A stretch of DNA of 64,000 bases, taken from contig JBFWWG010000003.1 in the NCBI GenBank assembly GCA_050246315.1, forward strand, positions 32,001-96,000, given 5' to 3'. The position numbers were made by a program, and so were the translations under genes. Shown piece after piece: positions 7,076-43,387 of this stretch. The DNA is from Nitrospiraceae bacterium. Its GTDB lineage: Bacteria; Nitrospirota; Nitrospiria; Nitrospirales; Nitrospiraceae. Every line of letters starts with the position of its first letter. Position 1 is the first letter of the stretch. The notes under the pieces were generated by a model. The model ran no database searches and was not told the origin of the DNA. It saw only the letters and a list, made by a program, of their open reading frames with translations.

Positions 7076-7103
7076 TAATCTCGCTCGATCGGGAGATTGC
7101 ACC

Positions 7104-7433: not shown

Positions 7434-7453
7434 ACACACGCACCGGTACGGCG

Positions 7454-8497: not shown

Positions 8498-8518
8498 CGT
8501 CCGATGTGTTGGATGCCT

Positions 8519-14357: not shown

Positions 14358-14388
14358 CGCGATGCGTGCGTTCGGTGGCTGATCAGCC

Positions 14389-15366
14389 ATGCCCATGACC
14401 ATTCTCGTAACCGGGGCCACTGGATTCTTAGGATCTCATCTGGTCCAGCGTCTTGTGGAGGAGGGGCATCGTGTCAAAATTCTCACCCGACCTGGTTCCT
14501 TGTCGGGTGTCCGACGAAACCTTCGCGTGGAAGCGATCACCGGGGATGTGACCAACCAGCGTGAGACGTCCGAGGCGATTCATGGATGTGACGTGGTCAT
14601 TCACGCCGCCGCCAATCTCAGCTATTGGGGAAACGATCGTTCTGTCCTGGAACAGGTGAACGTTGAAGGTACGCGAAACGTGGTCCACGCGTGTCGCCTG
14701 AACGGAGTGACGCGGCTCATTCATGTCAGTTCTGTGGCTGCCATCGGTATTCCCGATTCACCCGAGCACCCGGCGGGCGAAGAGTTTCTCTTTAATCTCG
14801 AAGGAAAGAGCCTGCCGTATCACCTTTCCAAGCACAAGGCCGAGCAAATCGTTCTCGATGAAGTGAATCGAGGGCTCGATGCCGTGATCGTGAATCCCGC
14901 CTCCATCTTTGGACCGTACCGGACGACCTATCGCGGAGCCGACATGCTTCGAAAAGTCCGACAGACGAGAATCGTCCCATACTTCACGGGCGGGATCTGT
15001 GTGGTTCATGTCGATGATGTCGTCAGTGGGATTCAGGCTGCCTTGCGACATGGCACGATCGGCCACCGATACATTTTAGGAGGCGAGAATGTCAGTTTCC
15101 TGAGTTTGGTACAACGGACGGCGGCTGCAATGGACATTCAGCGAAGGTTCGTCCCGGTGTTTCCCTTCGTCACCGCCCTGGCAGCCTCGATTCTTGAGCC
15201 GTTGGGACGCTTGCGTGGACGCCGTCCGTCTATCACCTATGTGACTCATTATTGCGCAGGTCGCTATCATTTCTATAGTTCGGAGAAGGCTGCCCGGACA
15301 TTCGGATATGCTCCGCGGCCATTTGATTCGATTCTTCATGAATGTCTGCGGATGCGCATGTGCTGA
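14389..15366 (+). CDS. Extended SDR NAD-dependent epimerase/dehydratase (HpnA/dihydroflavonol-reductase-like)
   Basis: ILVTGATGFLGS, NVEGTRNV, YHLSK, VIVNPASIFGP, VHVDDV, RYILGGENVS. Confidence 0.85.
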   Translation: MPMTILVTGATGFLGSHLVQRLVEEGHRVKILTRPGSLSGVRRNLRVEAITGDVTNQRETSEAIHGCDVVIHAAANLSYWGNDRSVLEQVNVEGTRNVVHACRLNGVTRLIHVSSVAAIGIPDSPEHPAGEEFLFNLEGKSLPYHLSKHKAEQIVLDEVNRGLDAVIVNPASIFGPYRTTYRGADMLRKVRQTRIVPYFTGGICVVHVDDVVSGIQAALRHGTIGHRYILGGENVSFLSLVQRTAAAMDIQRRFVPVFPFVTALAASILEPLGRLRGRRPSITYVTHYCAGRYHFYSSEKAARTFGYAPRPFDSILHECLRMRMC

Positions 15367-16910: not shown

Positions 16911-18032
16911 GTGCCCGTGAATCAGCGCATCGCTCTCTACATCGATCCGCCGACCCACCACTTTCTCGGTGACCGGCTATTTGTGCTCGACGACGGGCGC
17001 CCGAACGGCGATCACATGAACGGACCGTACGTCTATCTGAGGGAACGGCTCGCCTCACAAGGCATCGCCGTCCATACGGCCGACCGATTGCGTGAGACTC
17101 TTACCTCGGATGCGCAGCAACAGAATGTCTATGTCTCGATGGGATACTTGGACAATTACGAGCACCTCGCCAAACGACCCGATACGGTGGTCAGCGCCTT
17201 CTTTGCGATGGAGTGCCCGATTGTCGAGCCTTCGTTGTATCGCGCACTTCATGATGTGCAGCGGCGCTTCAAGCGGATCTACTCCTGGAGCGATAGTGCG
17301 TCGTTGGAGCCGTTTGTCGGCGAGCGCCTCAAACTGGAATCGATGTGTTGGCCTCAAGCCTTCGATCGGGTGCACGACGTGTGGGGTCGGCCACGTAAGA
17401 AGTTCCTCGTGATGATCAACTCCAACAAGCTGCCGCGCCTGTATGTGCGGGAGTTGTACACGGAGCGTCTAAAGGCCGTCGAGTATTTCTCGCGCACCAA
17501 CGAAATCGAATTGTACGGGCCGGGGTGGGACGGGCCGTCGAGCCGCGTGGGAAAGACATGGGTGCCGGCAACCGTACGCCGGATCCAGCGCGAGATCGTG
17601 CGCCGCTGGCATCATATCCATCCCGATCCGCTCCTGGAGGCGGCCCGTCGTGTCTATCGTGGGCAGGCCAGCACGAAACGGGACGTCCTCAGCCAGTATA
17701 CTTTCGCCCTCTGCTTCGAGAACATGATCCTCAACGGCTGGATCACCGAGAAAATCTTCGACTGCTTCTTCGCGGGCACCGTGCCCGTCTATTGGGGTCC
17801 TCCGAATGTCACCGACTACATTCCCGTCGAGTGCTTTATCGATATGCGCCGGTTCGCCGATTATCAGGAGCTTCACGCCTTTCTGAAATCGCTCGATGAG
17901 AATACGATTCGACGATATAAGGAACACGCGCGGGATTTTCTGAGCTCGCCGCAGTTCAAGCCGTTCTCGAAAGAGGCGTTCGTGGATATCTTCCGTCGGA
18001 TCATTCGGGAAGACGCCGGAGTGGCACTCTAA
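16911..18032 (+). CDS. Glycosyltransferase family 10 (alpha-1,3/4-fucosyltransferase-like)
   Basis: YTFALCFENMILNGWITEKIFDCFFAGTVPVYWG matches the GT10 alpha3-FucT motif. Confidence 0.8.
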   Translation: MPVNQRIALYIDPPTHHFLGDRLFVLDDGRPNGDHMNGPYVYLRERLASQGIAVHTADRLRETLTSDAQQQNVYVSMGYLDNYEHLAKRPDTVVSAFFAMECPIVEPSLYRALHDVQRRFKRIYSWSDSASLEPFVGERLKLESMCWPQAFDRVHDVWGRPRKKFLVMINSNKLPRLYVRELYTERLKAVEYFSRTNEIELYGPGWDGPSSRVGKTWVPATVRRIQREIVRRWHHIHPDPLLEAARRVYRGQASTKRDVLSQYTFALCFENMILNGWITEKIFDCFFAGTVPVYWGPPNVTDYIPVECFIDMRRFADYQELHAFLKSLDENTIRRYKEHARDFLSSPQFKPFSKEAFVDIFRRIIREDAGVAL

Positions 18033-18300: not shown

Positions 18301-19770
18301 ATGCTTCGGATTCTCGTTGGAATCGGGACGCTGCAAGGTCTCGCCGTACTGGTGAACTTTGCCCGAACGAAGATCACCGCGCTGTTGGTCGGCCCCGAAG
18401 GTGTCGGCATCATCAGCGTGATCGATCAATTGATTCAATTCGTCGCGCACACTTGCGCCCTCAGCCTGCCGTTTGCCGCGGTCAAGTTCTTGTCCAAGGC
18501 TCACAGCGAAGGCGGCGAGGCGTTCCGCGAAGGGTATGTTCTTTTTTTCAAGGCTCTGTTGGTGCTGAGCTCGATCGGGACGGTCGTCGCGGTAAGTTTG
18601 GCGCTCTTGCGGATCGATCTCTTTCCCAAGGAACTTACATCGTACTCCACGTTGCTCGTCGTGGGGTTTCTCGGCATTCCGGGAACCGTGTTGGCCGGGT
18701 TCTTCCCGAACGTCTTGGCGGCGGGCCAGCAACCCACCGGATCGGCTCGGTTGACCCTGTATGTCGGCATGACGGTCGCGTCGGCGAGTACGGTCGGTTT
18801 GGCGATGGGAGGGTTGCTGGGATTGTATGCGGGAAGCGCAGCCGCCGTGACGATCGTCGCCGTCGCGACGGTCGGCTATCTCCGGCAGATCCTGGGGCTG
18901 GCCGTGACACGATCCTCGGCGGCGCTCCGGGTGGGATTCCACCGCTTAGGGAACGTGGTGTCCTTCAGCATCCTGTTCTATGTCAGCGCCCTCACCTCCA
19001 CCGGGGCGCTGCTGGTCGCACGCTACGTCGTCTTGGAGAATTTCGGCGAAGCCGAGGCCGGTTTCCTCCAAGCCGGCATGGCGATCGCGCTGCTGATGAA
19101 CGTGGTGCTCAATCCCTTGAACGGATTGTTTTTGACGCCGCAAGTCAATCGGGCGAGTTCCAAGGAAGAGAAGTTCCAGACGGCGGTGGAGTTCCAAAAA
19201 CAACTGGCCATGATCCTGATGATCCTCGCGCTGCCGATGGTGCTCTTTCCGCACATCATTCTGTGGGTCGCCTTTTCATCGAAGTTTTTGGTCGTCGCGC
19301 CATACGTGTTTCTTTTCGTGCTGTGGCAGGCCTTCGTCAATCTTGGCGGCGTGTACCAGGCGCTCCTGATCGGGCTCGACGACATGGTGTCCTATACCGC
19401 CTTGACCTGTCTGGGCAACCTCCTGGCGGCCGGCGCGGTGGTGCTCCTCGCTCCGCGCTACGGCGTCGTCGGAGCGGCGATCGGATTGGCCGTGGCGAGC
19501 GCGCTTGTCTCAGTCGGGACCTTCGTCCGATTGCGACTGCGGCATGGATTTGGCTTACCCGGCACTCTGGTCTCCCTGATGAGTTACAGTCTCCTGGTCA
19601 TGTTCGCATTCGGCGTCGTCTTCAGACATGCCGGCGATTGGAACCTCACCACCGTCTTTTCGAAAATCGGGGTGGCTCTCCTCGCGGTCATGGGCCTCTT
19701 GCTCTTTTTGAATCGGAAGGACAAGCTTGCCTTGTCGGCCATCTCCCATAAGATGTGGCCCGGCACCTGA
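18301..19770 (+). CDS. Second Wzx-like flippase
   Basis: RTKITALLVGPEGVG N-terminal signature of WzxE/O-antigen flippases; about 13-14 TM; EAGFLQA in the central loop. Confidence 0.8.
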   Translation: MLRILVGIGTLQGLAVLVNFARTKITALLVGPEGVGIISVIDQLIQFVAHTCALSLPFAAVKFLSKAHSEGGEAFREGYVLFFKALLVLSSIGTVVAVSLALLRIDLFPKELTSYSTLLVVGFLGIPGTVLAGFFPNVLAAGQQPTGSARLTLYVGMTVASASTVGLAMGGLLGLYAGSAAAVTIVAVATVGYLRQILGLAVTRSSAALRVGFHRLGNVVSFSILFYVSALTSTGALLVARYVVLENFGEAEAGFLQAGMAIALLMNVVLNPLNGLFLTPQVNRASSKEEKFQTAVEFQKQLAMILMILALPMVLFPHIILWVAFSSKFLVVAPYVFLFVLWQAFVNLGGVYQALLIGLDDMVSYTALTCLGNLLAAGAVVLLAPRYGVVGAAIGLAVASALVSVGTFVRLRLRHGFGLPGTLVSLMSYSLLVMFAFGVVFRHAGDWNLTTVFSKIGVALLAVMGLLLFLNRKDKLALSAISHKMWPGT

Positions 19771-19822
19771 TGCGCGACTGCGAACGGGAACGGCGCCTGA
19801 CCGAGCGCACGAGAGAACTGGC

Positions 19823-20908
19823 ATGATGCGGGTTGCGGTGATCGGCTTAGGAGCCGTCGCCAACAATATTCACCTGCCGGCCTACCGTCGTCTGAAGGAT
19901 CGGATGACGCTCGTCGCCGGGTGCGACGTCGATCCGGTCGCGCGAGCGGCGATGGCCAAGTCCGGGGCATTTCAGGAGATCTACGATGATCCGGTCAGAA
20001 TGCTCGATCGGTCCAAGCCGGATATCGTGAGTATCTGTACGCCGCCGGCGCTGCATGTCCGCCAATGTCTTGAAGCGCTCGAACGCGGCTGCCATGTGTT
20101 TTGCGAGAAACCCCTGGCCGAGAGTCTCAGGGAGGCGGATATGATTATTGAAGCCTCCGCGCGCCTCCACCGCTCGGTTGTCGTCAATAGCCAGTTTCCG
20201 TACATGAACATGCATATGGCGGCCAAGCAGCGGATCGGGTCGCCGGAGTTCGGCCGACTACTGTTTTTGCACGCCTCGCAGACTTTTCGACCGACGGCGC
20301 AAACGGAAGCCGGATGGAGAGCCACGATGCAGCGCCGATTGTGTTTTGAGTTCGGAGTGCACGTCTTCGAACTGATCCGATATTTCTTCGATGGAACCCC
20401 GAACAGGCTGTGGGCCTTGATGCCGCGACCGCAGGTCGGGGGCGGTACGGAATCTTTGAATATCATTGCGATGGAATTTGCAGACGGACGCGCCGCTTCC
20501 ATCTTGCTGGACCGCTTGAGCAAAGGACCAGAAAGATATCTCGACATACGCCTTGACGGAGAACATGCGGCCATGACGACATCGATCGGGGGAGAACTCC
20601 GCGTCGAGGCCGGCCTCCACACGCGCCAGCGGAGACTCTTCGCAGGCTTTCATCTGGTGAAGGGCGGCAAGGCCGTTCTCCAACAGGCCGAGAGGACGGT
20701 CGTCATCGGGAAGGACGAGATGAATCCAATGGCTTCCGCCACAGCCGTCCACTTCGGAAACTTTTTGACGGCTCTTGAGACCGGCCGTCTTCCAGCGGGT
20801 ACCGCAGCGGACCACAGATCGACGCTCGCGCTGTCCCTGGCTGCGTACGACGCTGTCGAGTCGGGGAGGGCTGTGGAGATGGCTTCCTATCTGGGTCGCA
20901 CCGACTAG
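19823..20908 (+). CDS. Gfo/Idh/MocA family oxidoreductase
   Basis: RVAVIGLGAVA, SICTPPALH, HVFCEKPLA, FEFGVH. Confidence 0.85.
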   Translation: MMRVAVIGLGAVANNIHLPAYRRLKDRMTLVAGCDVDPVARAAMAKSGAFQEIYDDPVRMLDRSKPDIVSICTPPALHVRQCLEALERGCHVFCEKPLAESLREADMIIEASARLHRSVVVNSQFPYMNMHMAAKQRIGSPEFGRLLFLHASQTFRPTAQTEAGWRATMQRRLCFEFGVHVFELIRYFFDGTPNRLWALMPRPQVGGGTESLNIIAMEFADGRAASILLDRLSKGPERYLDIRLDGEHAAMTTSIGGELRVEAGLHTRQRRLFAGFHLVKGGKAVLQQAERTVVIGKDEMNPMASATAVHFGNFLTALETGRLPAGTAADHRSTLALSLAAYDAVESGRAVEMASYLGRTD

Positions 20909-20934
20909 TTGTCGGCTGTGCTTGAGGCTTGTCC

Positions 20935-21996
20935 ATGAAGGCACGATCGAACGGCGTGTCCGCTCGAGCCCAACACCCACTTCGGGTGGCTATTGTCGGT
21001 GCCGGTCTCATGGGCCGATGGCATGCCCATGCCTCCCGTAAATCAGGGGGAACTGTGGTGGCCGTTGCGGATCAGGATCCTGCTGCAGCGAGGCGACTCG
21101 CCGGACAATCCGGGTCAGTCCAGTGCTGCATGGATGTCAAGGAACTGCTCGACCAGGTGCCGTGCGAGGTGATCCATATCTGTACGCCAATGGCGAGCCA
21201 TGAAGAGATTGCCAGCTCTGCCATGGAATCAGGCAGACATGTATTGGTCGAGAAGCCTCTCACGCCGGATGCAGAGGGGACCCGACGGTTAATCCACCTG
21301 GCAGCTCGATGCGGTGTGCTCATGTGCCCGGTTCATCAGTTTGCCTTCCAGGACGGCGTACAAAAAGCGCAACGGCTGCTGAGCGCCATCGGACAGATTC
21401 TTCACATAGAAGCGACCTTTTGCTCGGCAGGCGGAGCGGGCCGCCCGGACCTTGAACTCGACGCCTTGGTGGCGGAGATTCTGCCGCACCCTTTGTCCCT
21501 GATGCAGGTGTTCCTATCGGGCCACACGATTCCGGAGAACTGGGCGGTGGTCCGTCCACGACATGGTGAATTTCGCGCCGCCACCGAGATCGAAGGCGTC
21601 ACGGCTTCGCTTGTCGTCAGCCTCCATGCCCGTCCGGCGCACTGTTCATTTCAGATCCTTGGCGCTGACGGCACGATCCATCTCGACCTGTTCCACGGAT
21701 ATGCATTTATGGAGCCGGGCTCCGTTTCCAAGGCGAGGAAGGTGCTCCGGCCCTTCGATCTGGCGGCAAGTCGATTTGCCGCGGCCTCGGTCAATCTCGC
21801 GTCGAGACTGTGCCGTCACGAGCCTGCGTACCCAGGCCTGACTCGCCTGGTTACGACGTTTTATGACGCGGTGCGGGAGGGTGGACCGCCACCAATCACC
21901 TCTGCGGCGATGGAGAATATCGCCAGAGTCCGTGACATCCTCTCCGTCGCCAAGCCGATTCCTGATGGTCCGCCCTGTGGGTCGAGAGCGGAATGA
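20935..21996 (+). CDS. Gfo/Idh/MocA family oxidoreductase
   Basis: RVAIVGAGLMG, HICTPMASH, HVLVEKPL, EILPHPLS. Confidence 0.85.
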   Translation: MKARSNGVSARAQHPLRVAIVGAGLMGRWHAHASRKSGGTVVAVADQDPAAARRLAGQSGSVQCCMDVKELLDQVPCEVIHICTPMASHEEIASSAMESGRHVLVEKPLTPDAEGTRRLIHLAARCGVLMCPVHQFAFQDGVQKAQRLLSAIGQILHIEATFCSAGGAGRPDLELDALVAEILPHPLSLMQVFLSGHTIPENWAVVRPRHGEFRAATEIEGVTASLVVSLHARPAHCSFQILGADGTIHLDLFHGYAFMEPGSVSKARKVLRPFDLAASRFAAASVNLASRLCRHEPAYPGLTRLVTTFYDAVREGGPPPITSAAMENIARVRDILSVAKPIPDGPPCGSRAE

Positions 21997-22510
21997 GAGC
22001 CCTGTGCGCACCAGGACCAGCCGATCGTCTGTTGCGAGAGCACGTGCAACGGCGGTACTTGCGATCACGGCACCGACGATCGGGGTCTTGGTCATAGGTG
22101 GAGAGGTGATGCTGCGGCTTACCGGTTACACGCCCTCTTATTTCGATGCACACGCCTCCATTCCGAGTCGGAATCCGGAACGACTTGACCAACTCAGGCC
22201 GGGATTCCATGGGCTCGGTGCCGGAGTCTCCGCGTCCTTCCACTCTATGGGATTGCGCGGAGCTGAACTCAGAACTCCAGGGGATGCTCGGGTCTTTGGT
22301 GTGCAGACGGTGGGCGAGGTGCCTGAATCGGAAAGGGCCACGTGTCCTGACGCGGTGGAGCCCTTCATCGATCCCGGACACTGCCCACAGTCGGCAGTGC
22401 CGAGACTCACCCTGCCGCGCAGCTTTACGAGAGAGTGGTCTATCAGGTTCATGTTTCGATATCGTAATGCCCCAAGCGCTCATGGGAGCGTGCGAGCCAT
22501 GGTGAGATGA
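21993..22510 (+). pseudogene. Eroded remnant of a membrane-anchored SGNH-hydrolase-like gene
   Basis: GEVMLRLTGY...LRPGF.G...SMGLRGAE resembles the N-terminus of such proteins; the GDS motif is lost (PGDARVFG); the ATGA-coupled start at 21993 is in a different frame that stops after ~35 codons. Confidence 0.5.
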
Positions 22511-22637
22511 GTCGGGATGATGACTGCACAGATGGCGGCCTCTCGTGGGATGGTAGTCCATTATCCCACCACCATAGCCATGACAGGACCTCGGCTCCAA
22601 GCAACCGGCACCGCGACCGTATTGCGAACCAGTCGTG

Positions 22638-23552
22638 ATGTCTCAACTTCATCGAGAAGGGCAAGACGAGCCTCCCGACCTGTCGGTCGTGATCGGGTCC
22701 CATAATGCACGAACCAGCATGAGAGACTGCCTGACCTCATTGCGGAAACAGCGGAACGGATGCCGTTCAGAGATTGTCGTCGTGGACAACTCAACCGATG
22801 GAACGGACGCCATTGTGTCCAAAGAATTTCCCGATGTGACGCTGATCCGTTCGTCTGCCGAGCATTGGATTCCGGAATTATGGGAGATCGGCGTGAGGGC
22901 CAGCCGAGGTTCGGTTGTCGCCCTCACGACCGCGCATTGCGTTCCGGACGAGGACTGGATGAAGGAGATCCTCGCGGCTCATCGTGACAGCACCTACGTG
23001 GGGATCGGTGGGGCCATCGAGACCGATGACTCGGCGAGCATCACGGGTTCGGCGGTGTATCTGTGCCGGTATGCGCGGTATATGCGACCGTTTGAGCCGC
23101 GCCTCATCGATGATATTCCTGCCGACAACGCGTCCTATAAGCGCTGGGCGCTGGACCGTTGCGCGGACGTGCGTGCGCGAGGCTTCTGGGAGCCTGACAT
23201 TCACGCCAAACTCATCGCGGAGGGCCATCGCCTTTGGTTGACGCCCAAGATCGGAGTGCGGCACAGAGGCTCATTCACCCTTGCGGAGTTCATGTCGCAA
23301 CGATTCTGGCATGGCCGACAATTCGGGTCTTCTCGCGCGAGGCGTCTGCCGATGCCGGTTCGCTTGGCCCACATTCTGGCGACTCCGCTCGTGCCCGTGG
23401 TGATGCTGACTCGAATCGCCCGTCAGCTCATACACAAGAGGCGACAGGTCGGACGGTTCGTCCTCGCCTCGCCCATTCTCGGCCTCTTCCTCATCAGTTG
23501 GGCGTCCGGGGAGGCGTTTGGATACCTGCGACCGTCGCCCACGCAGGCATGA
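22638..23552 (+). CDS. GT2-like glycosyltransferase with C-terminal TM helices, tandem paralog 1
   Basis: LSVVIGSHN, VVVDNSTDGT, ALTTAHC, IGGAIE, PADNASYKR, FWE, QRFWHGR, SWASGEAFGYL. Confidence 0.8.
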   Translation: MSQLHREGQDEPPDLSVVIGSHNARTSMRDCLTSLRKQRNGCRSEIVVVDNSTDGTDAIVSKEFPDVTLIRSSAEHWIPELWEIGVRASRGSVVALTTAHCVPDEDWMKEILAAHRDSTYVGIGGAIETDDSASITGSAVYLCRYARYMRPFEPRLIDDIPADNASYKRWALDRCADVRARGFWEPDIHAKLIAEGHRLWLTPKIGVRHRGSFTLAEFMSQRFWHGRQFGSSRARRLPMPVRLAHILATPLVPVVMLTRIARQLIHKRRQVGRFVLASPILGLFLISWASGEAFGYLRPSPTQA

Positions 23553-24463
23553 GGAACCTTGACGTCGTCCATCGGCCTCGGCTGTCTGTGGTTGTAGCCT
23601 GCACCTGTGAGTACCGGAATGTTCAGCCGGTCTTGGCTTCGCTTCACGGCCAAGCTGGAGCCGAAGGCGTCGAGATCATCGTGGTGGATGGCTCGGGGGG
23701 TCCGCCCACTGAGCCGACGGAGCGCGATCCCTTGCAGAGAACGATGCTCCGATTTCCCAATGGGACCCCTCTCCCCACGTTGTGGGGTGCCGGCATTGCG
23801 CAGGCGCGCGGCGATGTTATCGCCATGATGGATGCGTCTTCGGTTCCCGATGCGCAGTGGATCACCGCGACGTTGGCGGCGCACGAGTCTCCCGCCCTGG
23901 TCGTCGGCGGGGCCGTGGATCCCATTCCAGAGAGAGGTCTGGTCGATTGGGCCGCATATTTTTGCGAATACGGTCGATTCATGCGTCCCCTGAGCGCGGG
24001 GGTGGTTTCTGAACTCCCCGGAAACAATATGGCGTTCAAGCGCGCGGCCCTGGAACGGGGACGCCGCTTCGTCGAGCCCGCGTTCTGGAAGACATATTGG
24101 TGTCGGACGCTTCAGCGGGAAGGCGTGCAGCTATGCGCGGTTCCCTCCATGGTGACGTACGACGCGAAATCCTATCGGCTTCTGCCATTCCTCGTCCGGC
24201 GGTACCATCATGGACGCTGCTTTGCGGGGATGAGGAATCGAGAGATTTCGGGGATCATGCGCCTGCTGTATTTTCTGGGGACACCCCTCCTGCCGGTTGT
24301 CTCCCTCCTGAGAATCGCGAGGCCGATTCTCCAAAAGCGGCGGTACCTTCGACCGTTCTTGTTGTCGCTTCCCGCCTCGATCCTGGCCGTCGTCAGTTGG
24401 TCCGTGGGTGAGTGGTGCGGCTATCTGGCCGGACCTGGGACGAGTTGCAGGCAGGTGCAGTAA
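23549..24463 (+). CDS. GT2-like glycosyltransferase, tandem paralog 2
   Basis: ATGA overlap with paralog 1; LSVVVA, MDASS, VGGAV, DWAAYFCEY, PGNNMAFKR, FWK, HHGRCFAG, SWSVGEWCGYL. Confidence 0.8.
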   Translation: MRNLDVVHRPRLSVVVACTCEYRNVQPVLASLHGQAGAEGVEIIVVDGSGGPPTEPTERDPLQRTMLRFPNGTPLPTLWGAGIAQARGDVIAMMDASSVPDAQWITATLAAHESPALVVGGAVDPIPERGLVDWAAYFCEYGRFMRPLSAGVVSELPGNNMAFKRAALERGRRFVEPAFWKTYWCRTLQREGVQLCAVPSMVTYDAKSYRLLPFLVRRYHHGRCFAGMRNREISGIMRLLYFLGTPLLPVVSLLRIARPILQKRRYLRPFLLSLPASILAVVSWSVGEWCGYLAGPGTSCRQVQ

Positions 24464-24489
24464 GACATTCACGACGATATGGTCTCGCC

Positions 24490-25386
24490 ATGAGCCAACA
24501 CACCATTTCCGTCGTCATCGCCTGCGTCAATGGACTGCCGTCGATCCATGAATGTTTGACGGCCCTCGAGCGAGAACGCCAGGGCGTCTCTGCCGAGATC
24601 CTGGTGCTCTGCTGCTGCGGGAACACAACCGCGACGCACATCGCCACACACTTCCCGGCCTGCACATTGATCCATTTCCCCACGAGGTTGGCAATCCCGG
24701 AACTGCGCGCGATCGGAATGGCGCGCGCGACAGGGGAGATCGTCTCGATCATCGAAGATCACTGCCTCGTCGGGGAGGGATGGTTTCGCGAGATTCTCGC
24801 GGCTCACGAGAAGGGGTACGAGGCCGTCGGCGGCACGGTGACGAACGGCAGCGTCGAGCGCCTGACCGACTGGGCCGTCTTCCTCTGCGAATACAGCGGT
24901 GTCATGCCGCCCATCCCGGACGGTGAAGTCGCGGGGATCACCGGCAACAACGCGTCCTATCGAACAACCATTCTCGATCGGGTGGAGGATTCGACCAAGA
25001 GAGAATGCTGGGAACTCTTCCTCCATCAGGAACTCAGGCGGCAGGGCGTGAAGTTTCTTTCCGCGCCTTCGATCATCGTCAGTCATAAGAAGGAGTTCGG
25101 CTTCTGGTACTTCATGGCCCAGCGGTACCACTATTCTCGCTCGTTCGCTGGCATGAGAAGACAGCGTACGTCACGGCTGAACAGCCTTCTGTACGCCTGC
25201 GCGTCGCCTCTGCTTCCCGGCCTGATGCTGTGGAGGATGGCGCGTCAGGTATGGATCAAACAGCGGCATATGGAGAAATTCGTCCTGTCGCTGCCGTTGC
25301 AGGCCGCGTTCATGCTGAGCTATGCGGCGGGCGAATGCGTCGGGTATCTCTTCGGGTCCGGTGACAGCCTTCTCAAGGTCGAGTGA
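24490..25386 (+). CDS. GT2-like glycosyltransferase, tandem paralog 3
   Basis: ISVVIA, IEDHC, VGGTV, DWAVFLCEY, TGNNASYR, CWE, QRYHYSRSFAG, GECVGYL. Confidence 0.8.
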   Translation: MSQHTISVVIACVNGLPSIHECLTALERERQGVSAEILVLCCCGNTTATHIATHFPACTLIHFPTRLAIPELRAIGMARATGEIVSIIEDHCLVGEGWFREILAAHEKGYEAVGGTVTNGSVERLTDWAVFLCEYSGVMPPIPDGEVAGITGNNASYRTTILDRVEDSTKRECWELFLHQELRRQGVKFLSAPSIIVSHKKEFGFWYFMAQRYHYSRSFAGMRRQRTSRLNSLLYACASPLLPGLMLWRMARQVWIKQRHMEKFVLSLPLQAAFMLSYAAGECVGYLFGSGDSLLKVE

Positions 25387-26294
25387 CCACCATGTCGTCG
25401 TCCGGCCTCCGTCTCTCCGTCGTCGTGGCTGCGTCGCACTCGCCGGCGGAGCTGGAAGCCTGCCTGGCCTCGCTGAAAGATCAGCTCGTTGCGGGAGCGA
25501 TCGAAGTGATCGCGGTCTGTAACTACGGCGTGGAGCTCGATCAGACGACGAAGCTCCGATTTCCTTTTGCCCATCTCATCGTCGTTCCTCCTACGACCAC
25601 TGTGCCGCAACTGCGGACGCTCGGCATTCGCGCCTCGACCGGCGAGATCGTGGCGCTGCTGGAAGACAACGTGACAGTCGCCTCCACTTGGTCTGGGGCG
25701 CTGGTGAAAGGCCATGACTTTTCGCAGGCCATCGTCGGCGGACCCATCGAACGGGTCGGCCGACATCGAGCCGTCGATTGGGCGGTCTACCTCTATGAAT
25801 ATGGGAAATACATGCTGCCGGTTCCGGAAGACGAGATCACGTCTTTGCCGGGCAACAACGTCAGTTATAAACGAGCCTTGCTCGATACGATTCAGCAAGA
25901 GTGGAGAGACGGCTTGTTTGAAGCATTTCTCAACGAACGGTTGCGCGGGCAGGGATGCGTCCTTCGCCTGATTCCCGACGCGATCGCCTATCACACGAGC
26001 CGCTATCGCGTCGGAGAAGTGGTCGGGCAGTGTTATCACCACGGTCGCCATTTTGCCGGGCGACGAATGGCCGGGTCGGTGCTCCTCACTCGGCTCGGCT
26101 TTGCAGGCGCTGCAATTCTTCTCCCGCTCATCCTGCCCTTGCGGATTATTGTCCGTACAGTACGAAGGCGCCGCCACCTCGGCGCCTTGGCGGCCGCACT
26201 CCCATATTTGTCGCTCTTCTTGACGACCTGGGCATGCGGCGAATGCATCGGCTATCTCTTTGGAGAAGGGGACAGCGTCAAGCAATGGGTCTGA
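25383..26294 (+). CDS. GT2-like glycosyltransferase, tandem paralog 4
   Basis: GTGA overlap with paralog 3; LSVVVA, LEDN, VGGPIE, DWAVYLYEY, PGNNVSYKR, LFE, HHGRHFAG, TWACGECIGYL. Confidence 0.8.
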   Translation: MTTMSSSGLRLSVVVAASHSPAELEACLASLKDQLVAGAIEVIAVCNYGVELDQTTKLRFPFAHLIVVPPTTTVPQLRTLGIRASTGEIVALLEDNVTVASTWSGALVKGHDFSQAIVGGPIERVGRHRAVDWAVYLYEYGKYMLPVPEDEITSLPGNNVSYKRALLDTIQQEWRDGLFEAFLNERLRGQGCVLRLIPDAIAYHTSRYRVGEVVGQCYHHGRHFAGRRMAGSVLLTRLGFAGAAILLPLILPLRIIVRTVRRRRHLGALAAALPYLSLFLTTWACGECIGYLFGEGDSVKQWV

Positions 26295-27499
26295 CCAGTG
26301 CCGGAAGAAGGCCACGCATCGGAGTGGACGCGTGCTGTTGGTCGAATCGCCGCGGCTTCGGTCGATTCACCCGAGAATTGTTGTCGGCGCTCGTCGCTTC
26401 GGACGCAGACCGCGACTACATCTTCTTCGTAGATCAAGACACGGCGCGCACCTGCATGTTTCCTCGCGAGGCAAAAGTGGTGACTGCTTCGACCGATGTG
26501 GCACCCGCTGTCGCTGCGGCGGCGTCGGGGCGTCGCTCGCTAAAAGACATGTGGACGTTGAGCCACGCCGTAGCAAGAGAACCGATCGATCTCTTTTTCT
26601 TCCCCGCAGTCTATTCCTATTTTCCAATCATGAACCGTTGCAAGATCGTCGTCACCGTCCATGACATGATCGCCGATCACCATCCGGAGCATGTGTTTCC
26701 GAACTGGAAAGCGAAGTTCTTCTGGAAATTGAAGCAACGCGTCGCCCTCCTGCAGGCACACTCGATCCTGACCGTTTCGAATCATGCCAAGCAACAGATC
26801 GTCACCTATTTCCGGATACCGGAGTCCCGGGTGGCCACCACCACGGAAGGGCCGACTCATGCCTTCGTCCACCTCCCATTCTCCGATCGGACGGCCGAAA
26901 TCCTGTCTCGCATCGGCCTCAGAGCGGATGAACCCTTCGTGCTGTACGTCGGCGGGATCAGTCCGCACAAAAATTTGAGCGTCTTGGTCGACGCTTTTCA
27001 TCGAGTGGCGGCCGATTCATCTTTCGCCGGTCATAAATTGGTACTGGTAGGGGACTACCAAGGAGACGTCTTTTACTCCTACTACGACGCATTACGGGCA
27101 GACATCGACCGACATGGTCTTCAACCCAAGGTCATCTTCACGGGATTCGTGTCCGACCCGGAGCTCGTAGAACTCTACAATGCCGCCCAGGCGGCGGTCC
27201 TGCCGTCGCTCGAAGAGGGATTCGGGTTGCCGGCGGTAGAAGCCATGGCCTGCGGAACTCCGATCATTTGCAGTGACCGAGGGTCTTTGCCGGAAGTCGT
27301 CGGTCCAGCCGGACAATTGTTCGATCCCGGACGTCCCGACGAACTCGCGGCCGTGCTGCGTCAGGTGTTGGGGAACGAACGCCTGCGGGACAGCATGCGC
27401 GAAGCCGGCCTGCAACGATCGCAGACTTTTACCTGGGATGCCGCCGCGCAATCCACCCTGGCGCTGTTCGACCGTCTAATAGGCAGCCGGAAGCCATGA
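26285..27499 (+). CDS. Glycosyltransferase family 4
   Basis: RIGVDA...GFGRF, TVHDMI, PHKNL, EEGFGLPAVEAMACG; start set to ATG 26285. Confidence 0.9.
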   Translation: MGLTSAGRRPRIGVDACCWSNRRGFGRFTRELLSALVASDADRDYIFFVDQDTARTCMFPREAKVVTASTDVAPAVAAAASGRRSLKDMWTLSHAVAREPIDLFFFPAVYSYFPIMNRCKIVVTVHDMIADHHPEHVFPNWKAKFFWKLKQRVALLQAHSILTVSNHAKQQIVTYFRIPESRVATTTEGPTHAFVHLPFSDRTAEILSRIGLRADEPFVLYVGGISPHKNLSVLVDAFHRVAADSSFAGHKLVLVGDYQGDVFYSYYDALRADIDRHGLQPKVIFTGFVSDPELVELYNAAQAAVLPSLEEGFGLPAVEAMACGTPIICSDRGSLPEVVGPAGQLFDPGRPDELAAVLRQVLGNERLRDSMREAGLQRSQTFTWDAAAQSTLALFDRLIGSRKP

Positions 27500-28794
27500 G
27501 AACGCCGCTCCGTTTCTGCATGGTAACGACGTACTACCCTCCCTATCACTTTGGAGGAGATGGGACGTTCGTGTACCGTCTGTCCAACCTCCTGGCGGAG
27601 CACGGTCATGCCGTCGAGGTCATCCACTGTCGGGACGCCTATTATGCGGCCTGCGGAACGGAACCGACCGGCGAGTGGCCGAACCATCCTCGCGTTACCG
27701 TGCACCGATTGAAGAGTCGCGCGGGGTTCCTCTCGCCGCTGATTACGCAGCAATTCGGCGTTCCGGGTTTCAAAGCAAGACGGCTGAAACAGATTCTGAC
27801 GACCGGACAGTTCGACATCATCCATTACCACAATATTTCCCTTGTGGGTGGGCCGAAGGTGCTCGAGTATGGCGATGCCATCAAGCTCTATACCACGCAC
27901 GAGTACTGGCTCGCATGCCCGACGCATGTCCTCTTCCGCTTCAATCGAGCGGCGTGCACCAAACCGACTTGCTTCACCTGTCAGCTATCCTATCGCCGCC
28001 CTCCTCAGCTCTGGCGCTGGACCGGCATGATGGATCGCGCGCTCCGGCACATCGATGCCGTGATCTCGCCGAGCCGGTTTGCCGCGGATATCCACGCGCG
28101 CATGGTGCGAGGTCTTTCTGTGACAGTGCTCCCCATGTTTGTTCCGAAGTGTTCGGCCGGTGGGGGAGAACCGCCGCCGCCTGCAGCACTGGAAATCCGA
28201 CAGCCCTATTTCCTCTATGTGGGGCGACTCGAAAAGCTGAAGGGGCTTCAAGATGTGATTCCAGTGTTCATGCGCGATACACCCGCCGACCTTGTCGTGG
28301 TCGGCACCGGTCGGTACGAACCTGAACTGAAGCGCCGTGCAGGAGGCAGCTCACGCATCAGATTTCTCGGACCGCTGCCATTCGCCCAACTCCGTCACCT
28401 GTATGCCAAGGCCACGGCGCTGATCGTGCCATCGCTGTGCTACGAAACCTTCGGACAGGTTGTGGCCGAGGCCATCTCATTCCGCACACCCGTTATTGCG
28501 CGGGATATCGGCGCCTTGTCCGAGCTGGTGGCTGTGAGCGGAGGCGGCATTTTGTACCGAACCGAGGGTGAGTTGCGCGATGCAATCGAATCTCTTTGCA
28601 GATGTCACGACAGAAGGGATCACCTGGGAGAACGCGGCCACGCCGCGGTCTCTCAATATTGGACCGAAGATATCCATCTCGAGCAGTACTTCACGCTCAT
28701 CAGCCGAATTCAACGGAAACGGGAGGCTCAACGTCACGACGTAGCTGGTGAGGATAACTCTCCTGTCGGTTGCGACGATGATCTCCGCACATAG
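27496..28794 (+). CDS. Glycosyltransferase family 4 with a Cys-rich insertion
   Basis: YYPPYHFGGDG, HEYWLAC...C...C..C, YVGRLEKLKG, YETFGQVVAEA; ATGA overlap. Confidence 0.9.
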   Translation: MRTPLRFCMVTTYYPPYHFGGDGTFVYRLSNLLAEHGHAVEVIHCRDAYYAACGTEPTGEWPNHPRVTVHRLKSRAGFLSPLITQQFGVPGFKARRLKQILTTGQFDIIHYHNISLVGGPKVLEYGDAIKLYTTHEYWLACPTHVLFRFNRAACTKPTCFTCQLSYRRPPQLWRWTGMMDRALRHIDAVISPSRFAADIHARMVRGLSVTVLPMFVPKCSAGGGEPPPPAALEIRQPYFLYVGRLEKLKGLQDVIPVFMRDTPADLVVVGTGRYEPELKRRAGGSSRIRFLGPLPFAQLRHLYAKATALIVPSLCYETFGQVVAEAISFRTPVIARDIGALSELVAVSGGGILYRTEGELRDAIESLCRCHDRRDHLGERGHAAVSQYWTEDIHLEQYFTLISRIQRKREAQRHDVAGEDNSPVGCDDDLRT

Positions 28795-31488: not shown

Positions 31489-32265
31489 ATGCCCATGGCC
31501 TACCGACTGCCGATTCTGACATATCATTCCCTCGATACCACGGGATCCGTCATCTCGACCGCTCCGATCGTGTTTCGACAGCAGATGCAGTGGTTCTATC
31601 AGCATGGCTTTGTGACGATTTCCCTCGTTCAAGCGGCACGGTTGCTGACGCTCAAACAACCGTTCCCTGAACGAACGTGCGTCCTGACGTTCGACGACGG
31701 CTACGACAACGTCTATCAGGAGGCATTTCCCGTTCTGCAACAATACGGATTCACGGCCACCGTCTTTCTGGTGACCGCTTATTGCGGCAAGACGAATGAC
31801 TGGCCCGGCCATCGGTCTCCAATCGGTGACCGCGCACTTCTCTCCTGGCCTCAGATCTCGGAAATGGCGGGTCATGGCATCACATTTGGATCGCATACCG
31901 CCACGCATCCTGACTTAGTTCGCATCTCGCGGGACCAGGCGGCACACGAATTGCGGGAATCCAAGCAGACCATTGAGGACCGTTTAGGCCGCAAGGTAGA
32001 GACCTTCGCCTATCCCTACGGCCATTACAATCGGGCGACAGTGGATCTTGTCCGCACGCATTTCAGCGTCGCCTGCTCTACGACGTTGGGCAAGGCGGCC
32101 GACTCGGATGATCCCACGCTGCTTCCGAGGATCGACATGTATTACCTGTCTTCTCATCGACTCATGGCATCGCTCCCGTCAATTAGGATGGATGCGTACT
32201 TGGCGCTGCGTGGGATCTTGCGAACCGTCAAACACACCCTGACCGATTACGCAGGTGCACGATGA
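31489..32265 (+). CDS. Polysaccharide deacetylase (NodB/CE4)
   Basis: PILTYH, LTFDDGY, GSHTATH, FAYPYG, LPRI. Confidence 0.9.
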   Translation: MPMAYRLPILTYHSLDTTGSVISTAPIVFRQQMQWFYQHGFVTISLVQAARLLTLKQPFPERTCVLTFDDGYDNVYQEAFPVLQQYGFTATVFLVTAYCGKTNDWPGHRSPIGDRALLSWPQISEMAGHGITFGSHTATHPDLVRISRDQAAHELRESKQTIEDRLGRKVETFAYPYGHYNRATVDLVRTHFSVACSTTLGKAADSDDPTLLPRIDMYYLSSHRLMASLPSIRMDAYLALRGILRTVKHTLTDYAGAR

Positions 32266-33281
32266 CTCTCCAACGCAATGCATTCTGCTGCCCTCTTTGC
32301 AAGGGGAGCCTTGGCGACGATCAGGCCTCGTATTATTGTGCGGCCTGTGAGAGACGATTTCCGGTGGTCCTGGGCATTCCCGACTTCCGAGTGTTCCCTG
32401 ATCCCTACATCGATTATGACGATGACAGAGAAAAGGCCAAGTACCTCGTCGAGCATCACGACAAGCTGGATTTCATGGGGCTCGTGAGGCTGTATTGGCA
32501 GATCACGCCGGAGGTGTCAGAGGATCGGGCGGAACGGTTCATCAGACGAACTGCCGCGCTCGTCGATAAGGGAAACGAATGCCTCAGCTTGATCGAGTCG
32601 CTGACGGGCAACGAACGGCTGTCGGGGTTCAAGAAGGTCTTGGAGATCGGATGCGGCACGGGCGGTTTTCTCGTTGCTGCAAAGCGTAAATACGAAGACG
32701 TGATCGGAGCGGACATCGCCTTTCGTTGGCTGGTTGTGGCTCGGAAACGGCTTCAGGAACTGAATGCCAATGTCCCCCTGGTGTGCTGTTGCGCGGAATT
32801 TCTGCCGTTTCCCGACCAGCGGTTTGACATCATCCTGGCCGAAGACGTGCTCGAGCACGTGAGGAGTCAAGAAGAGACGCTTGCCGAATGTCGTCGGCTG
32901 TTGACTGGGCGAGGCGTCCTATTTCTCGCCACGCCCAACCGCTTTAGTGTCACGCCGGAGCCGCACGTGCACGTGTGGGGAGTTGGGTTCATCCCTCGGA
33001 AATGGATGAATCGCTATGTGAGATTCGTGAAAGGGATTAATTACGAGCACATTCGAGTCCTCTCCTTTATGGAACTCAAGCGCATCTTGAACAGGTGCGG
33101 GCTCGACAATCATCGCATTTTGCTGCCCTCCATTTCCTCTCACGAGGCTCAATATTTCTCTCCAGTGCAACGAATGCAACTGGCGCTCTACAATGTCGTA
33201 CGGCGGATTCCCGTCGTTCGCTGGGTGCTCTACCTCTTTGGACCGTTTTTCAATGTCGTCGTCTTTGCCGACAAGAAATAG
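32262..33281 (+). CDS. Class I SAM methyltransferase with an N-terminal Trm112-like zinc finger
   Basis: CPLCKGSL...CAAC..RFPVVLGIPDF; LEIGCGTG; DVLEHV; ATPNRF; ATGA overlap. Confidence 0.85.
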   Translation: MTLQRNAFCCPLCKGSLGDDQASYYCAACERRFPVVLGIPDFRVFPDPYIDYDDDREKAKYLVEHHDKLDFMGLVRLYWQITPEVSEDRAERFIRRTAALVDKGNECLSLIESLTGNERLSGFKKVLEIGCGTGGFLVAAKRKYEDVIGADIAFRWLVVARKRLQELNANVPLVCCCAEFLPFPDQRFDIILAEDVLEHVRSQEETLAECRRLLTGRGVLFLATPNRFSVTPEPHVHVWGVGFIPRKWMNRYVRFVKGINYEHIRVLSFMELKRILNRCGLDNHRILLPSISSHEAQYFSPVQRMQLALYNVVRRIPVVRWVLYLFGPFFNVVVFADKK

Positions 33282-33303
33282 ATCGACAACCGCGCACCCT
33301 ATC

Positions 33304-34311
33304 GTGAGTCGCAGCCGATTCGTATCCGTCATTGTCCCCGTCTTTAATGGCGGTCGATTCCTCCCGCGCTGCCTGACCGCAATTCGTCAATCCTCGTGTT
33401 CATCCTACGAACTGATCGTCGTGGATAACGGTTCGACCGATGATTCAGTCGCCATCGCTCAGACACACGCGGACGTTGTTCTCCACTGCCCGGGCCCCAG
33501 CGGACCCGGGGCGGCGCGCAATGTCGGAGCGCGACACGCGGCCGGCGACATTCTCTTCTTCGTGGACGCGGACGTCGTCATCCACCCCGACGCGGTCGCT
33601 CGCGTGGCGGGTCGCTTTGCCGAGCAGCAGGGTCTTGCGGCGCTATTCGGTTCGTACGATGATAATCCCGATGCACAGAACTTCCTTTCTCAGTACAAGA
33701 ACTTGCTTCATCATTTTGTTCATCAGCACGCCAACAGCAACGCAACCACCTTTTGGGCGGGGTGCGGAGCCGTTCGCAACACCATTTTCCACGAAGCCGG
33801 AGGCTTCGATCAGGCCAAGTATCCGCATCCGTCGATTGAAGACATCGAATTGGGATTCCGCCTGCACCGCCTCGGGTACCGGATTGTGTTGGACAAGCAT
33901 CTCCAAGGTCAACACTTGAAGGAATGGCGGTTGGGCTCGCTCCTTCGGGCCGATATCCTCTATCGAGCCATTCCCTGGTCACAGCTCATTGTGGAACAGC
34001 AGGGACTCTTAAACGATCTCAATCTGAAGATCACTCAGAGAGTCAGCGCCGGGACGGCAGGGATCAGCGGGACATTGCTCGCGCTGTCGTTCTGGCAGCC
34101 CTCCCTGATGTACGGCGTGTTGCCCTTCTTGGCGTTGTTCCTGTTTCTCAACCGTGACCTCTTTGCCTTTTTCTTCCGGCGACGAAGCGTTTGGTTTGCC
34201 GCACGGGCGATTCCCTTGCACATGCTGTACCTGCTATATAGTAGTGCTACGTTCGTCCTGGTGTGGTGCCTGCACCCGGCAGTCACCAAGCGGGTGCGGG
34301 GTCGTAAGTGA
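33304..34311 (+). CDS. Glycosyltransferase family 2 with C-terminal TM helices
   Basis: VSVIVPVFN, VDNGSTD, ARN.GA, FVDAD, SIEDIELG; start set to GTG 33304. Confidence 0.88.
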   Translation: MSRSRFVSVIVPVFNGGRFLPRCLTAIRQSSCSSYELIVVDNGSTDDSVAIAQTHADVVLHCPGPSGPGAARNVGARHAAGDILFFVDADVVIHPDAVARVAGRFAEQQGLAALFGSYDDNPDAQNFLSQYKNLLHHFVHQHANSNATTFWAGCGAVRNTIFHEAGGFDQAKYPHPSIEDIELGFRLHRLGYRIVLDKHLQGQHLKEWRLGSLLRADILYRAIPWSQLIVEQQGLLNDLNLKITQRVSAGTAGISGTLLALSFWQPSLMYGVLPFLALFLFLNRDLFAFFFRRRSVWFAARAIPLHMLYLLYSSATFVLVWCLHPAVTKRVRGRK

Positions 34312-37977: not shown

Positions 37978-38053
37978 TGGTGCCGAGGGACAGAATTGAA
38001 CTGTCGACACCAGCCTTTTCAGGGCTGTGCTCTACCAACTGAGCTACCTCGGC
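37978..38053 (-). tRNA. tRNA-Phe (GAA)
   Basis: GCCGAGGTAGCTCAGTTGGTAGAGC..CT-GAA-AA..GTTCAATTC..CTCGGCACCA, 76 nt, CCA encoded. Confidence 0.97.
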
Positions 38054-38306: not shown

Positions 38307-38399
38307 TGGCGGAGAGGGCGGGATTTGAACCCGCGACAAGGCTTTTGGCCCTGTGACGGTTTAGCAAACCGTTGCCTTCGGCCACTCGGCCACCTCTCC
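38307..38399 (-). tRNA. tRNA-Ser (GCT)
   Basis: GGAGAGGTGGCCGAGTGG..CGGTTT-GCT-AAACCG, long variable arm, GTTCAAATC, GCCA end; 93 nt. Confidence 0.97.
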
Positions 38400-41676: not shown

Positions 41677-41766
41677 TGGCGGAGGGGGCGAGATTTGAAC
41701 TCGCGGACAGGTGACCCCGTCTCCGGTTTTCAAGACCGGCCCGTTCGGCCACTCCGGCACCCCTCC
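41677..41766 (-). tRNA. tRNA-Ser (TGA)
   Basis: GGAGGGGTGCCGGAGTGG..CCGGTCT-TGA-AAACCGG, long variable arm, GTTCAAATC, GCCA end; 90 nt. Confidence 0.97.

Positions 41767-42045: not shown

Positions 42046-43387
<1,342 letters not shown>

Follow-up and report, generated by a model that had tools for sequence, protein, structure and literature searches.

Four tandem glycosyltransferase paralogs without a canonical DxD motif in a Nitrospiraceae glycan cluster

We analysed a stretch of 64,000 nucleotides (nt) from a Nitrospiraceae bacterium (assembly GCA_050246315.1, contig JBFWWG010000003.1, positions 32,001 to 96,000 of the forward strand), here called the window. Four paralogous glycosyltransferases of family GT2, which we name P1 to P4, stand in tandem at 22638-26294. 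The reading that we favour, and that carries about half of our credence, is that they represent four ancient classes of an unnamed GT2 subfamily and form an obligate multi-paralog module, most likely a membrane hetero-oligomer.

The four paralogs and their active-site columns

The genes and the stretch directly upstream of them are:

22638-23552, + strand: P1, class A paralog, 304 amino acids (aa)
23549-24463, + strand: P2, class B paralog, 304 aa
24490-25386, + strand: P3, class C paralog (the universal core class), 298 aa
25383-26294, + strand: P4, class D paralog, 303 aa, starting at GTG 25383 or ATG 25392
21997-22637, no strand: spacer upstream of P1, 641 nt with no supported gene; the open reading frame (ORF) at 21863-22510 has no Pfam match

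A preliminary description of this DNA had noted four tightly coupled GT2 paralogs of about 300 aa, and the ORF list, the reading of the junctions and the alignment all bear this out. The junction bases of P1 and P2, read directly, form an ATGA overlap (23549-23552), P3 and P4 share a GTGA overlap (25383-25386), and a gap of 26 nt separates the TAA stop of P2 (24461-24463) from the ATG of P3 at 24490. Downstream, an in-frame ATG at 26285 gives the GT4 glycosyltransferase gene GT4a a 10-nt overlap with the end of P4, and the start of the second GT4 gene, GT4b, at 27496 overlaps the stop codon of GT4a (27497-27499); by these junction readings, translational coupling in the window spans P1 to GT4b. 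P2, P3 and P4 are 34, 36 and 30 % identical to P1, and the four-way alignment has 38 invariant columns and contains all the signature motifs quoted earlier for these proteins. Even the most distant pair, P1 and P4, is related far beyond chance (BLASTP E 2e-36). On the Pfam model Glycos_transf_2 (PF00535, cut-off 23.3 bits) P1, P2, P3 and P4 score 59.7, 39.4, 34.9 and 22.7 bits, so that P4 alone falls just under; we count it as a GT2 because of its identity to P1 and the E value of that match.

The 641-nt spacer was seen only in the window and in one of the related loci described below (L001, from a Nitrospiraceae metagenome-assembled genome (MAG), 97 % identical to P1), with 88.6 % nt identity, below that of the flanking genes. 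In another (L002) the stop of a Gfo/Idh/MocA oxidoreductase gene abuts the class A start, without a spacer. A scan of the spacer for promoter-like and terminator-like sites found none.

P3 is the one paralog of the four that we folded singly. Its AlphaFold2 model, built on a 148-row family alignment (pLDDT 95.7, pTM 0.92), has a GT-A domain up to about residue 200, followed by helices at 205-224, 229-257, 261-266 and 268-288, and Foldseek assigns the GT-A fold with probability 1.00 to many GT2 structures. Against the PDB the best whole-chain matches are membrane GT2s, namely hyaluronan synthases (8smm/8smp; TMq 0.61-0.65) and PcManGT (6yv7; 0.57), followed by TarP, WrtF, the ppGalNAcTs and GtrB (TMq 0.45), and no close full-length structural relative was found there. 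In the family, as in the hyaluronan synthases and PcManGT, the GT-A domain comes first and helices that lie at or in the membrane follow. The processive synthases, however, have a multi-helix transmembrane channel, whereas each protein of the family has only two hydrophobic segments, near residues 230-250 and 260-285 (P3 clearly shows the first alone, P1, P2 and P4 show both), and the QxxRW motif is absent from the family consensus, which reads Q-R-[YF]-x-x-[GS]-R instead. C-terminal helices are also common to the polyprenyl-phosphate glycosyltransferases of the GtrB/DPMS type, but DPMS (5mlz) matches at E 1.5e-6 in the N-terminal part only, and with their non-canonical DxD the paralogs do not belong to that type. 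The C-terminal hydrophobic helices probably anchor each protein to the membrane.

The core motifs of GT-A enzymes, as given in the available part of PMC7185993, are the DxD, the xED, the G-loop and a C-terminal His, with the Asp of xED as the usual base of inverting enzymes. A canonical DxD is absent from all four paralogs: the column reads TTAH in P1, MDAS in P2, IEDH in P3 and LEDN in P4, that is T-A-H, D-A-S, E-D-H and E-D-N in its place. At the xED column we read FWE, FWK, CWE and LFE, respectively. Here the Glu is kept in classes A, C and D and is Lys in class B, and the next residue is N, S, F, P or T in most members, not Asp; across the family only this preceding Glu is conserved and the Asp in no class. 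The candidate mechanisms are therefore a retaining one, one with Glu as the base, or one with a phosphate acceptor. The DxD column named in the preliminary description is the right one, since four independent alignments place the DxD there: ppGalNAcT12 FLDCH aligns on LLEDH, K4CP ILDCD on viEDh, WrtF LGAD on iEDh, and FVDAD of the window's canonical GT2 on IIEDH. This last protein (33193-34311), cited earlier as a control that keeps DAD and IED, does read FFVDADVV and SIEDIEL. The sequence alignments to PDB entries end by residue ~135, and the assignments of the xED and of the C-terminal His rest on the family alignment and on general GT-A topology.

Each paralog departs from the GT-A pattern in its own way. 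P1 reads VVDNST, has Arg in place of the CEY Glu and Asp-Asn in place of Asn-Asn. P2 has Lys at the xED position and is without the C-terminal His. P3 combines E-D-H with the C-terminal His, and in its lineage the beta2 Asp has become Cys (VLCCCG); P4 combines E-D-N with the C-terminal His, the beta2 Asp being absent. None of the four has all five residues of the set D/EDH/H/E/E. The earlier claim that all of them lack a DxD thus holds for the canonical motif, but it overstates the loss, because class C keeps on the D-x-D positions a near-invariant E-D-H together with the C-terminal His, a putative metal site of the DxH type. P3 very probably binds a metal, and P4, with its E-D-N and His, may do so as well.

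The retaining family GT27 has such a DxH motif with a metal-binding C-terminal His, according to the part of PMC7185993 that is available. In the alignment with ppGalNAcT12 its D-C-H is matched by E-D-H of class C, 65 of 69 class C sequences have a conserved His after the last core strand, and the xED Asp is not conserved; class C has E-x-H and His at positions aligned with the GT27 metal triad. The similarity covers the first ~120-135 residues only (E 1e-8 to 1e-6). Unlike GT27 enzymes, the members of the family are bacterial, are about 300 aa long, have C-terminal hydrophobic helices and Glu for Asp at the first position, and carry no lectin domain: neither a similarity to GT27 at family level nor a ricin-type lectin domain was found, and Pfam gave no extra domain of any kind.

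A subfamily of several paralog classes

Out of 8,000 candidates scored, 417 proteins matched a profile of the four paralogs at E<=1e-5; the best match, 97 % identical to P1, carries no name beyond 'MAG: glycosyltransferase [Nitrospiraceae bacterium]'. When 1.84 billion representatives at 50 % identity were searched exhaustively with a profile, 3,541 proteins came out at E<=1e-30. In genome_contigs, relatives are encoded in 203 of 224 pattern-matched stretches; the best 80 of these 203 gave 74 loci (L001 onwards), which together with the window make up our 75 sources. The record titles of the 74 loci name Nitrospirota, Acidobacteriota, Chloroflexota, Gemmatimonadota, Planctomycetota, Verrucomicrobiota, Actinomycetota, Armatimonadota, Myxococcota and Alphaproteobacteria, about ten phyla or classes overall. 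We counted as a family member any protein with at least 100 bits on the family hidden Markov model (HMM) and at least 200 profile positions covered, and found 190 members in a search of all stop-to-stop ORFs of the 75 sources.

That these proteins form a distinct GT2 subfamily, as had been proposed, is confirmed by the gap in scores: members reach 100-500 bits on the family HMM, whereas the two other GT2s of the window stop at 22.6 and 23.8 bits, and most GT2 ORFs of the loci that are not members at 24-45. No NCBIfam model lies above its cut-off for P1 to P4. The top match for all four is MftF, the mycofactocin glycosyltransferase (TIGR03965), with 54.4, 44.0, 41.7 and 25.6 bits against a cut-off of 280. 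MftF works alongside a methyltransferase, MftM; a methyltransferase of the window (MT2, listed below) scores 29 bits on the MftM model, and no mycofactocin genes were found here. The ESM Atlas holds generic 'glycosyl transferase family 2' clusters only, and full-text searches outside subscription journals and supplements found no literature on the subfamily or its cassette, only general GT-A papers and the work on WrtF. What makes the family unusual is its conserved class structure, its complementary active-site changes and its fusions.

The tree and a motif table divide the family into classes A, B, C and D, to which P1, P2, P3 and P4 respectively belong, plus classes E and F. From 89 of the 182 non-redundant sequences, IQ-TREE recovers classes C, A and E as single branches (SH-aLRT 97, 96 and 100), and A and C each cover several phyla as supported clades. 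Counted on non-redundant sequences, the active-site residues are as follows:

Class C (n = 69): DxD positions E in 67, D in 68, H in 65; C-terminal His in 65; beta2 Asp in 54; CEY Glu in 69; xED Glu in 67
Class A (n = 45): first DxD position T in 29, I in 11, acidic in 0; third position H in 23, Q in 12; C-terminal His in 16; beta2 Asp in 29
Class A (n = 45), fixed features: Arg for the CEY Glu in 45; Asp for the first Asn of NN in 42; xED Glu in 45
Class B (n = 28): first DxD position D in 24, E in 3; third position T, S or Y; C-terminal His in 0; beta2 Asp in 15; Lys for the xED Glu in 26
Class D (n = 23): DxD positions E in 23, D in 23, H in 14; C-terminal His in 11; beta2 Asp in 0
Class E (n = 10): E-D-H in 10; Gln at the C-terminal position in 10; Arg at the beta2 position in 10

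The Lys for Glu that the preliminary description had pointed out in P2 is therefore a conserved trait of class B. Conservation in the other classes can be measured on the 47 columns that are at least 90 % conserved in class C. Class A keeps 24 of these (20 with the same residue, four fixed on a different one), compared to 11 of 256 background columns; class B keeps 15 (background 8 of 256) and class D 24 (background 18 of 256). The metal triad is among the columns where A and B are relaxed. As judged from these counts, the changes in A, B and D are remodelling under selection and not random decay. That the extra copies are recent duplicates losing function at random is accordingly a reading to which we give next to no weight: the missing canonical DxD speaks for it and nothing further does, while all ORFs are intact, the class-specific residues are near invariant, and A and C each extend over several phyla as clades.

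Another alternative is that only class C, and perhaps D, transfers sugar, and that A and B are dead scaffolds or chaperones which stabilise C or dock the oxidoreductases and methyltransferases encoded nearby. COSMC offers a precedent: in the available part of PMC7185993 it is described as a GT-A paralog without DxD and xED that serves as a chaperone for its active paralog C1GALT1 (GT31). The metal triad is indeed the part relaxed in A and B, with no acidic residue at the first position in any of the 45 class A sequences, no C-terminal His in class B and the xED Glu replaced in nearly all of class B; in addition, a fusion of an oxidoreductase with class A exists (P0122). However, COSMC and C1GALT1 are eukaryotic GT31 proteins, and COSMC is left with neither motif, whereas in A, B and D a good part of the conserved core is still under selection, in A and B at rates well above background. 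The replacements are fixed (Arg in 45/45, Lys in 26/28) rather than drifting, which looks like a remodelled ligand site, and the beta2 Asp is retained in 29/45 of class A. Moreover, in the Nitrospira arrays (the window and L001-L004) it is A and B that retain this Asp and C that has Cys. We consider the pseudo-enzyme explanation rather unlikely.

An enzyme with a broken DxD may still be active. WrtF, a GT2 fucosyltransferase of Rhizobium tropici (9omh and others) that is among the top sequence and fold matches, is described in the available part of PMC12595478 as a GT2 of GT-A fold with G-A-D in place of DxD that is active without metal, and it would be a precedent for active classes A and B. 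It differs from them in having no basic residue at the diphosphate, another C-terminal alpha-domain and no paralog array. In some inverting GT-A families, as far as the available part of PMC7185993 goes, basic side chains stand in for the metal, and the Arg fixed in A and the Lys fixed in B may be read as substitutes of this kind.

Arrays, fusions and the case for a complex

Class C was found in 71 of the 75 sources; those without it are L007 (A at a contig end), L008 (A and a fragment), L052 (5' end cut) and the outlier L042. In uncut contexts, classes A, B, D, E and F were never seen without C in the 75 sources, while C is the sole class in 14 of them. The number of paralogs per lineage ranges from 1 to 4, in the patterns A-B-C-D (ten sources, plus one gapped), A-E-C (nine), A-C-D (five), A-B-C (three), A-C (three) and others, and the relative gene order is kept in most arrays, with exceptions in L006, L010, L045 and L056/L059. 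The set D/EDH/H/E/E is complete in 14 of 14 lone C proteins; among array C proteins 17 of 57 deviate from it, the window's included. Examples are the Nitrospira arrays with their Cys for the beta2 Asp in C, and L019, L025 and L028 (Pyrinomonadaceae / Chloracidobacterium MAGs), in which C reads S/EDC/K and D retains E-D-H and the C-terminal His, so that the 'complete' site appears to have moved to another paralog. The outlier L042 (7977-8894, from a Geobacter MAG) encodes a lone family-like protein with a canonical I-D-A-D and without any cassette neighbours, which may resemble the ancestral state.

Fusions, drawn from a search for longer proteins and from the exhaustive search and classified by class HMMs and Pfam, are of the following kinds:

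A-C fusion: P0121, 600 aa
A-C fusion: ORF 6996-8897 of L010, read through, with a linker of ~45 residues of Pro/Ala/Thr
E-C fusion: P0164
F-C fusion: P0163
Divergent doubles: P0165, P0170 and P0243
Gfo/Idh/MocA domain with class A: P0122, a cluster of 26 sequences
Gfo domain with other members: P0123 and P0124
Gfo domain followed by two members in one chain: P0176, 1,075 aa, the largest fusion seen
Class I S-adenosylmethionine (SAM) methyltransferase with class C: P0174 and P0225

In the A-C, E-C and F-C fusions the partner half comes first and the C half second, which is also the order of the genes. The halves of different fusions have their nearest relatives in different lineages, which points to several independent fusion events. 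Both GT-A domains of such a chain would end up on one side of the membrane if the C-terminal helices were monotopic or crossed it an even number of times. The preliminary description had suggested that homologs would recur as arrays or fusions with the same residue pattern if the paralogs form a system of their own, and as singletons with random degeneration if not; what recurs are ordered arrays and fusions with class-specific conserved residues.

We infer a physical hetero-oligomer from the gene fusions and the co-occurrence only. In the reading that we favour, class C would be the ancestral, metal-dependent catalytic subunit, with a metal site made of E-x-H and the C-terminal His. From classes A and B the metal ligands would have disappeared, the rest of the conserved core being largely kept, and a new basic residue would have become fixed in each (Arg in class A, Lys in class B). 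They would presumably still bind a nucleotide sugar, and might either transfer a different sugar without metal or hold the substrate for oxidoreductase or methyltransferase partners. Class D, in which E-D and the C-terminal His are retained, is a candidate for a second metal-dependent site. The module would be the core of a widespread glycan cassette with two GT4s, a CE4 deacetylase, a canonical GT2, SAM methyltransferases, Gfo/Idh/MocA or GMC oxidoreductases and a flippase. That the classes recur side by side, at times fused, in many phyla suggests one multi-part machine for a cell-surface sugar polymer.

The transferases of a bacterial glycan cluster are commonly taken to work independently, one by one. 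Applied here, this means an assembly line without a stable complex, in which each paralog independently adds one sugar of the repeat unit on a lipid carrier and the motifs reflect different donors, or metal-free catalysis in A and B. We regard this as the main alternative, though less likely than the module that we favour. The pocket is conserved in every class, the paralog number varies from lineage to lineage as would be expected if the glycan varies, and flippase and Wzy_C genes are present. The metal-independent activity of WrtF with its GAD (PMC12595478, in its available part) and the basic side chains that replace the metal in some inverting families (PMC7185993, likewise) agree with it too, the latter matching the fixed Arg and Lys. 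Against it speak the repeated paralog-paralog fusions in several distinct class combinations, the relative gene order shared by most arrays, the partner classes that never occur without C in uncut contexts, and the degeneration of class C inside arrays only.

Several points weigh against a multi-paralog module and its proposed complex. Glycan clusters commonly hold tandem glycosyltransferase paralogs that act independently, one sugar each; neighbouring genes can become fused even when their enzymes are merely sequential; and the Wzx-type flippase here and the Wzy_C protein in some loci would fit an ordinary stepwise pathway. The 74 loci were chosen by one peptide pattern and ranked by similarity to P1, which makes the sample a biased one. 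Nine of the 14 lone C genes (L050, L061, L064, L066 and L070-L074) adjoin an upstream ORF of ~190-310 codons from stop to stop (e.g., L061:7317-7994) that matches only positions ~4-110 of the profile, at 34-69 bits. Of the two that were checked by Pfam, one has a weak PF00535 match and the other none. These ORFs may be truncated or very diverged partner paralogs, and because they adjoin nine of the 14, 'lone' is maybe too strong a label. In the IQ-TREE run none of classes B, D and F comes out as a single branch (they need 3, 2 and 2 changes), so that a single origin of these three is compatible with the tree, being neither shown nor excluded by it. Class A occurs with the oxidoreductase genes GfoA or GfoB in 25 of 42 sources against 2 of 27 without it (Fisher p 1e-5, six near-duplicate sources dropped); the association is not significant by a phylogeny-aware test (7 independent pairs on the C tree, median p 0.6), and we set this co-occurrence aside as support. 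Only the fusions link the oxidoreductases to the family. Finally, the AlphaFold2 model of the A-C fusion P0121 has confident domains (pLDDT 91.5) joined by a disordered linker, but a pTM of only 0.60, with the packing of the domains undefined; its C half had 4 alignment rows.

By E-value, the best Foldseek matches of the P0121 model are the chondroitin polymerase K4CP (2z86/2z87) and heparosan synthase 2 (8vh8), with TM-scores of 0.25-0.27. Both GT-A domains of these bifunctional glycosaminoglycan polymerases align in order with the model, and the N-terminal GT2 domain of K4CP is also the top PDB sequence match of class C (E 2.5e-13). On the models, then, the fusion would be like the polymerases with two GT2 domains in its architecture but not in its arrangement. 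What they have in common with the proposed module is the idea of one polymer built jointly by two different GT-A sites. K4CP and heparosan synthase 2 have a canonical DxD in both domains and are single soluble or peripheral chains, whereas here 1-4 separate genes encode proteins with C-terminal hydrophobic helices.

One could go further and picture a 'split polymerase': a membrane hetero-oligomer in which a metal site in C, perhaps also in D, takes turns on the same growing chain with one or two remodelled sites that use no metal (that of A with its Arg, that of B with its Lys), and in which oxidoreductases and methyltransferases are docked on or fused to particular subunits. We think this elaboration unlikely. 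If true, transfer and tailoring of a heteroglycan would take place within one complex, of which we found no description for bacterial GT2 enzymes in the literature searched.

The subfamily comprises about 3,500 clusters at 50 % identity from many soil and water phyla, with fixed classes, complementary active-site changes and repeated fusions. Should the classes form one complex, as we favour, they would be a bacterial example of GT-A machinery built as a heteromer from paralogs. The lineages with 1, 2, 3 and 4 classes would then offer a natural series for the transition from homomer to heteromer and for the loss of the metal in GT-A enzymes, as well as a way into a conserved surface-glycan pathway of Nitrospira, Acidobacteriota, Gemmatimonadota, Chloroflexota and others.

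The surrounding glycan cassette

In the window the paralogs lie in a + strand glycan cluster from about 3401 to 36602, which also holds a MOP flippase, two further GT4s and another GT2. We identified the neighbours by clustering all ORFs of the 75 sources; where a cluster was counted, its number of sources is given:

3401-4918, + strand: MOP/Wzx-type flippase at the head of the cluster (Pfam, NCBIfam)
5219-7075, + strand: FAD-dependent oxidoreductase of the PRK07208 type (NF005548, 736 bits); 27 of 75 sources
7097-8497, + strand: GfoC, third Gfo/Idh/MocA oxidoreductase; 12 of 75
8504-9499, + strand: MT1, class I SAM methyltransferase; 11 of 75
12771-15366, + strand: B12-binding radical SAM protein and adjoining HpnA-like sugar epimerase, inside the glycan cluster
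16911-18032, + strand: protein with a GT10 (fucosyltransferase-type) C-terminal domain (Pfam), at one end of the cassette
18301-19770, + strand: polytopic membrane protein without Pfam or NCBIfam match; 7 of 75
19820-20908, + strand: GfoA, Gfo/Idh/MocA oxidoreductase (Pfam, NCBIfam), whose relatives are those fused to class A in P0122; 26 of 75
20929-21996, + strand: GfoB, second Gfo/Idh/MocA oxidoreductase (Pfam, NCBIfam); 22 of 75
26285-27499, + strand: GT4a, GT4 glycosyltransferase (Pfam, NCBIfam); 56 of 75
27496-28794, + strand: GT4b, second GT4 glycosyltransferase (Pfam, NCBIfam); 50 of 75
31489-32265, + strand: polysaccharide deacetylase (PF01522, CE4 type); 50 of 75
32262-33281, + strand: MT2, class I SAM methyltransferase; 25 of 75
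33193-34311, + strand: GT2x, canonical GT2 with DAD and IED motifs; 36 of 75
34587-36602, + strand: 671-aa membrane protein with a weak match to PMT (dolichyl-phosphate-mannose protein mannosyltransferase), at the other end of the cassette

An NAD epimerase/dehydratase is a neighbour in 21 of the 75 sources. The polytopic membrane protein sits directly upstream of GfoA in the window and in its Nitrospira relatives. The class C fusions with a methyltransferase carry the same Pfam methyltransferase domains as MT2, a likeness at the level of Pfam domains only. The radical SAM protein scores 185 bits on HpnJ and 177 on AprD4, and the epimerase 241 bits as HpnA-like, all below the NCBIfam cut-offs. 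In the Gemmatimonadota loci L061, L064 and L070-L073 a GMC oxidoreductase gene stands directly upstream of the lone C (e.g., L064:5022-7049), Gfo/Idh/MocA genes are absent from the fetched flanks, and a Wzy_C protein occurs in Gemmatimonadota loci. Taken together, the gene content suggests as the product a heteroglycan that is methylated, has lost part of its N-acetyl groups and contains sugars oxidised or tailored in other ways.

Two observations concern the borders of the glycan cluster. Directly upstream of it lies an ORF (1755-2909, + strand) with the catalytic domain of a Tle1-like phospholipase of type VI secretion systems (PF09994, 229 bits). Downstream, an ORF-poor stretch before the seryl-tRNA synthetase gene (42046-43368) contains three tRNA genes, all on the - strand: tRNA-Phe(GAA) at 37978-38053, tRNA-Ser(GCT) at 38307-38399 and tRNA-Ser(TGA) at 41677-41766.

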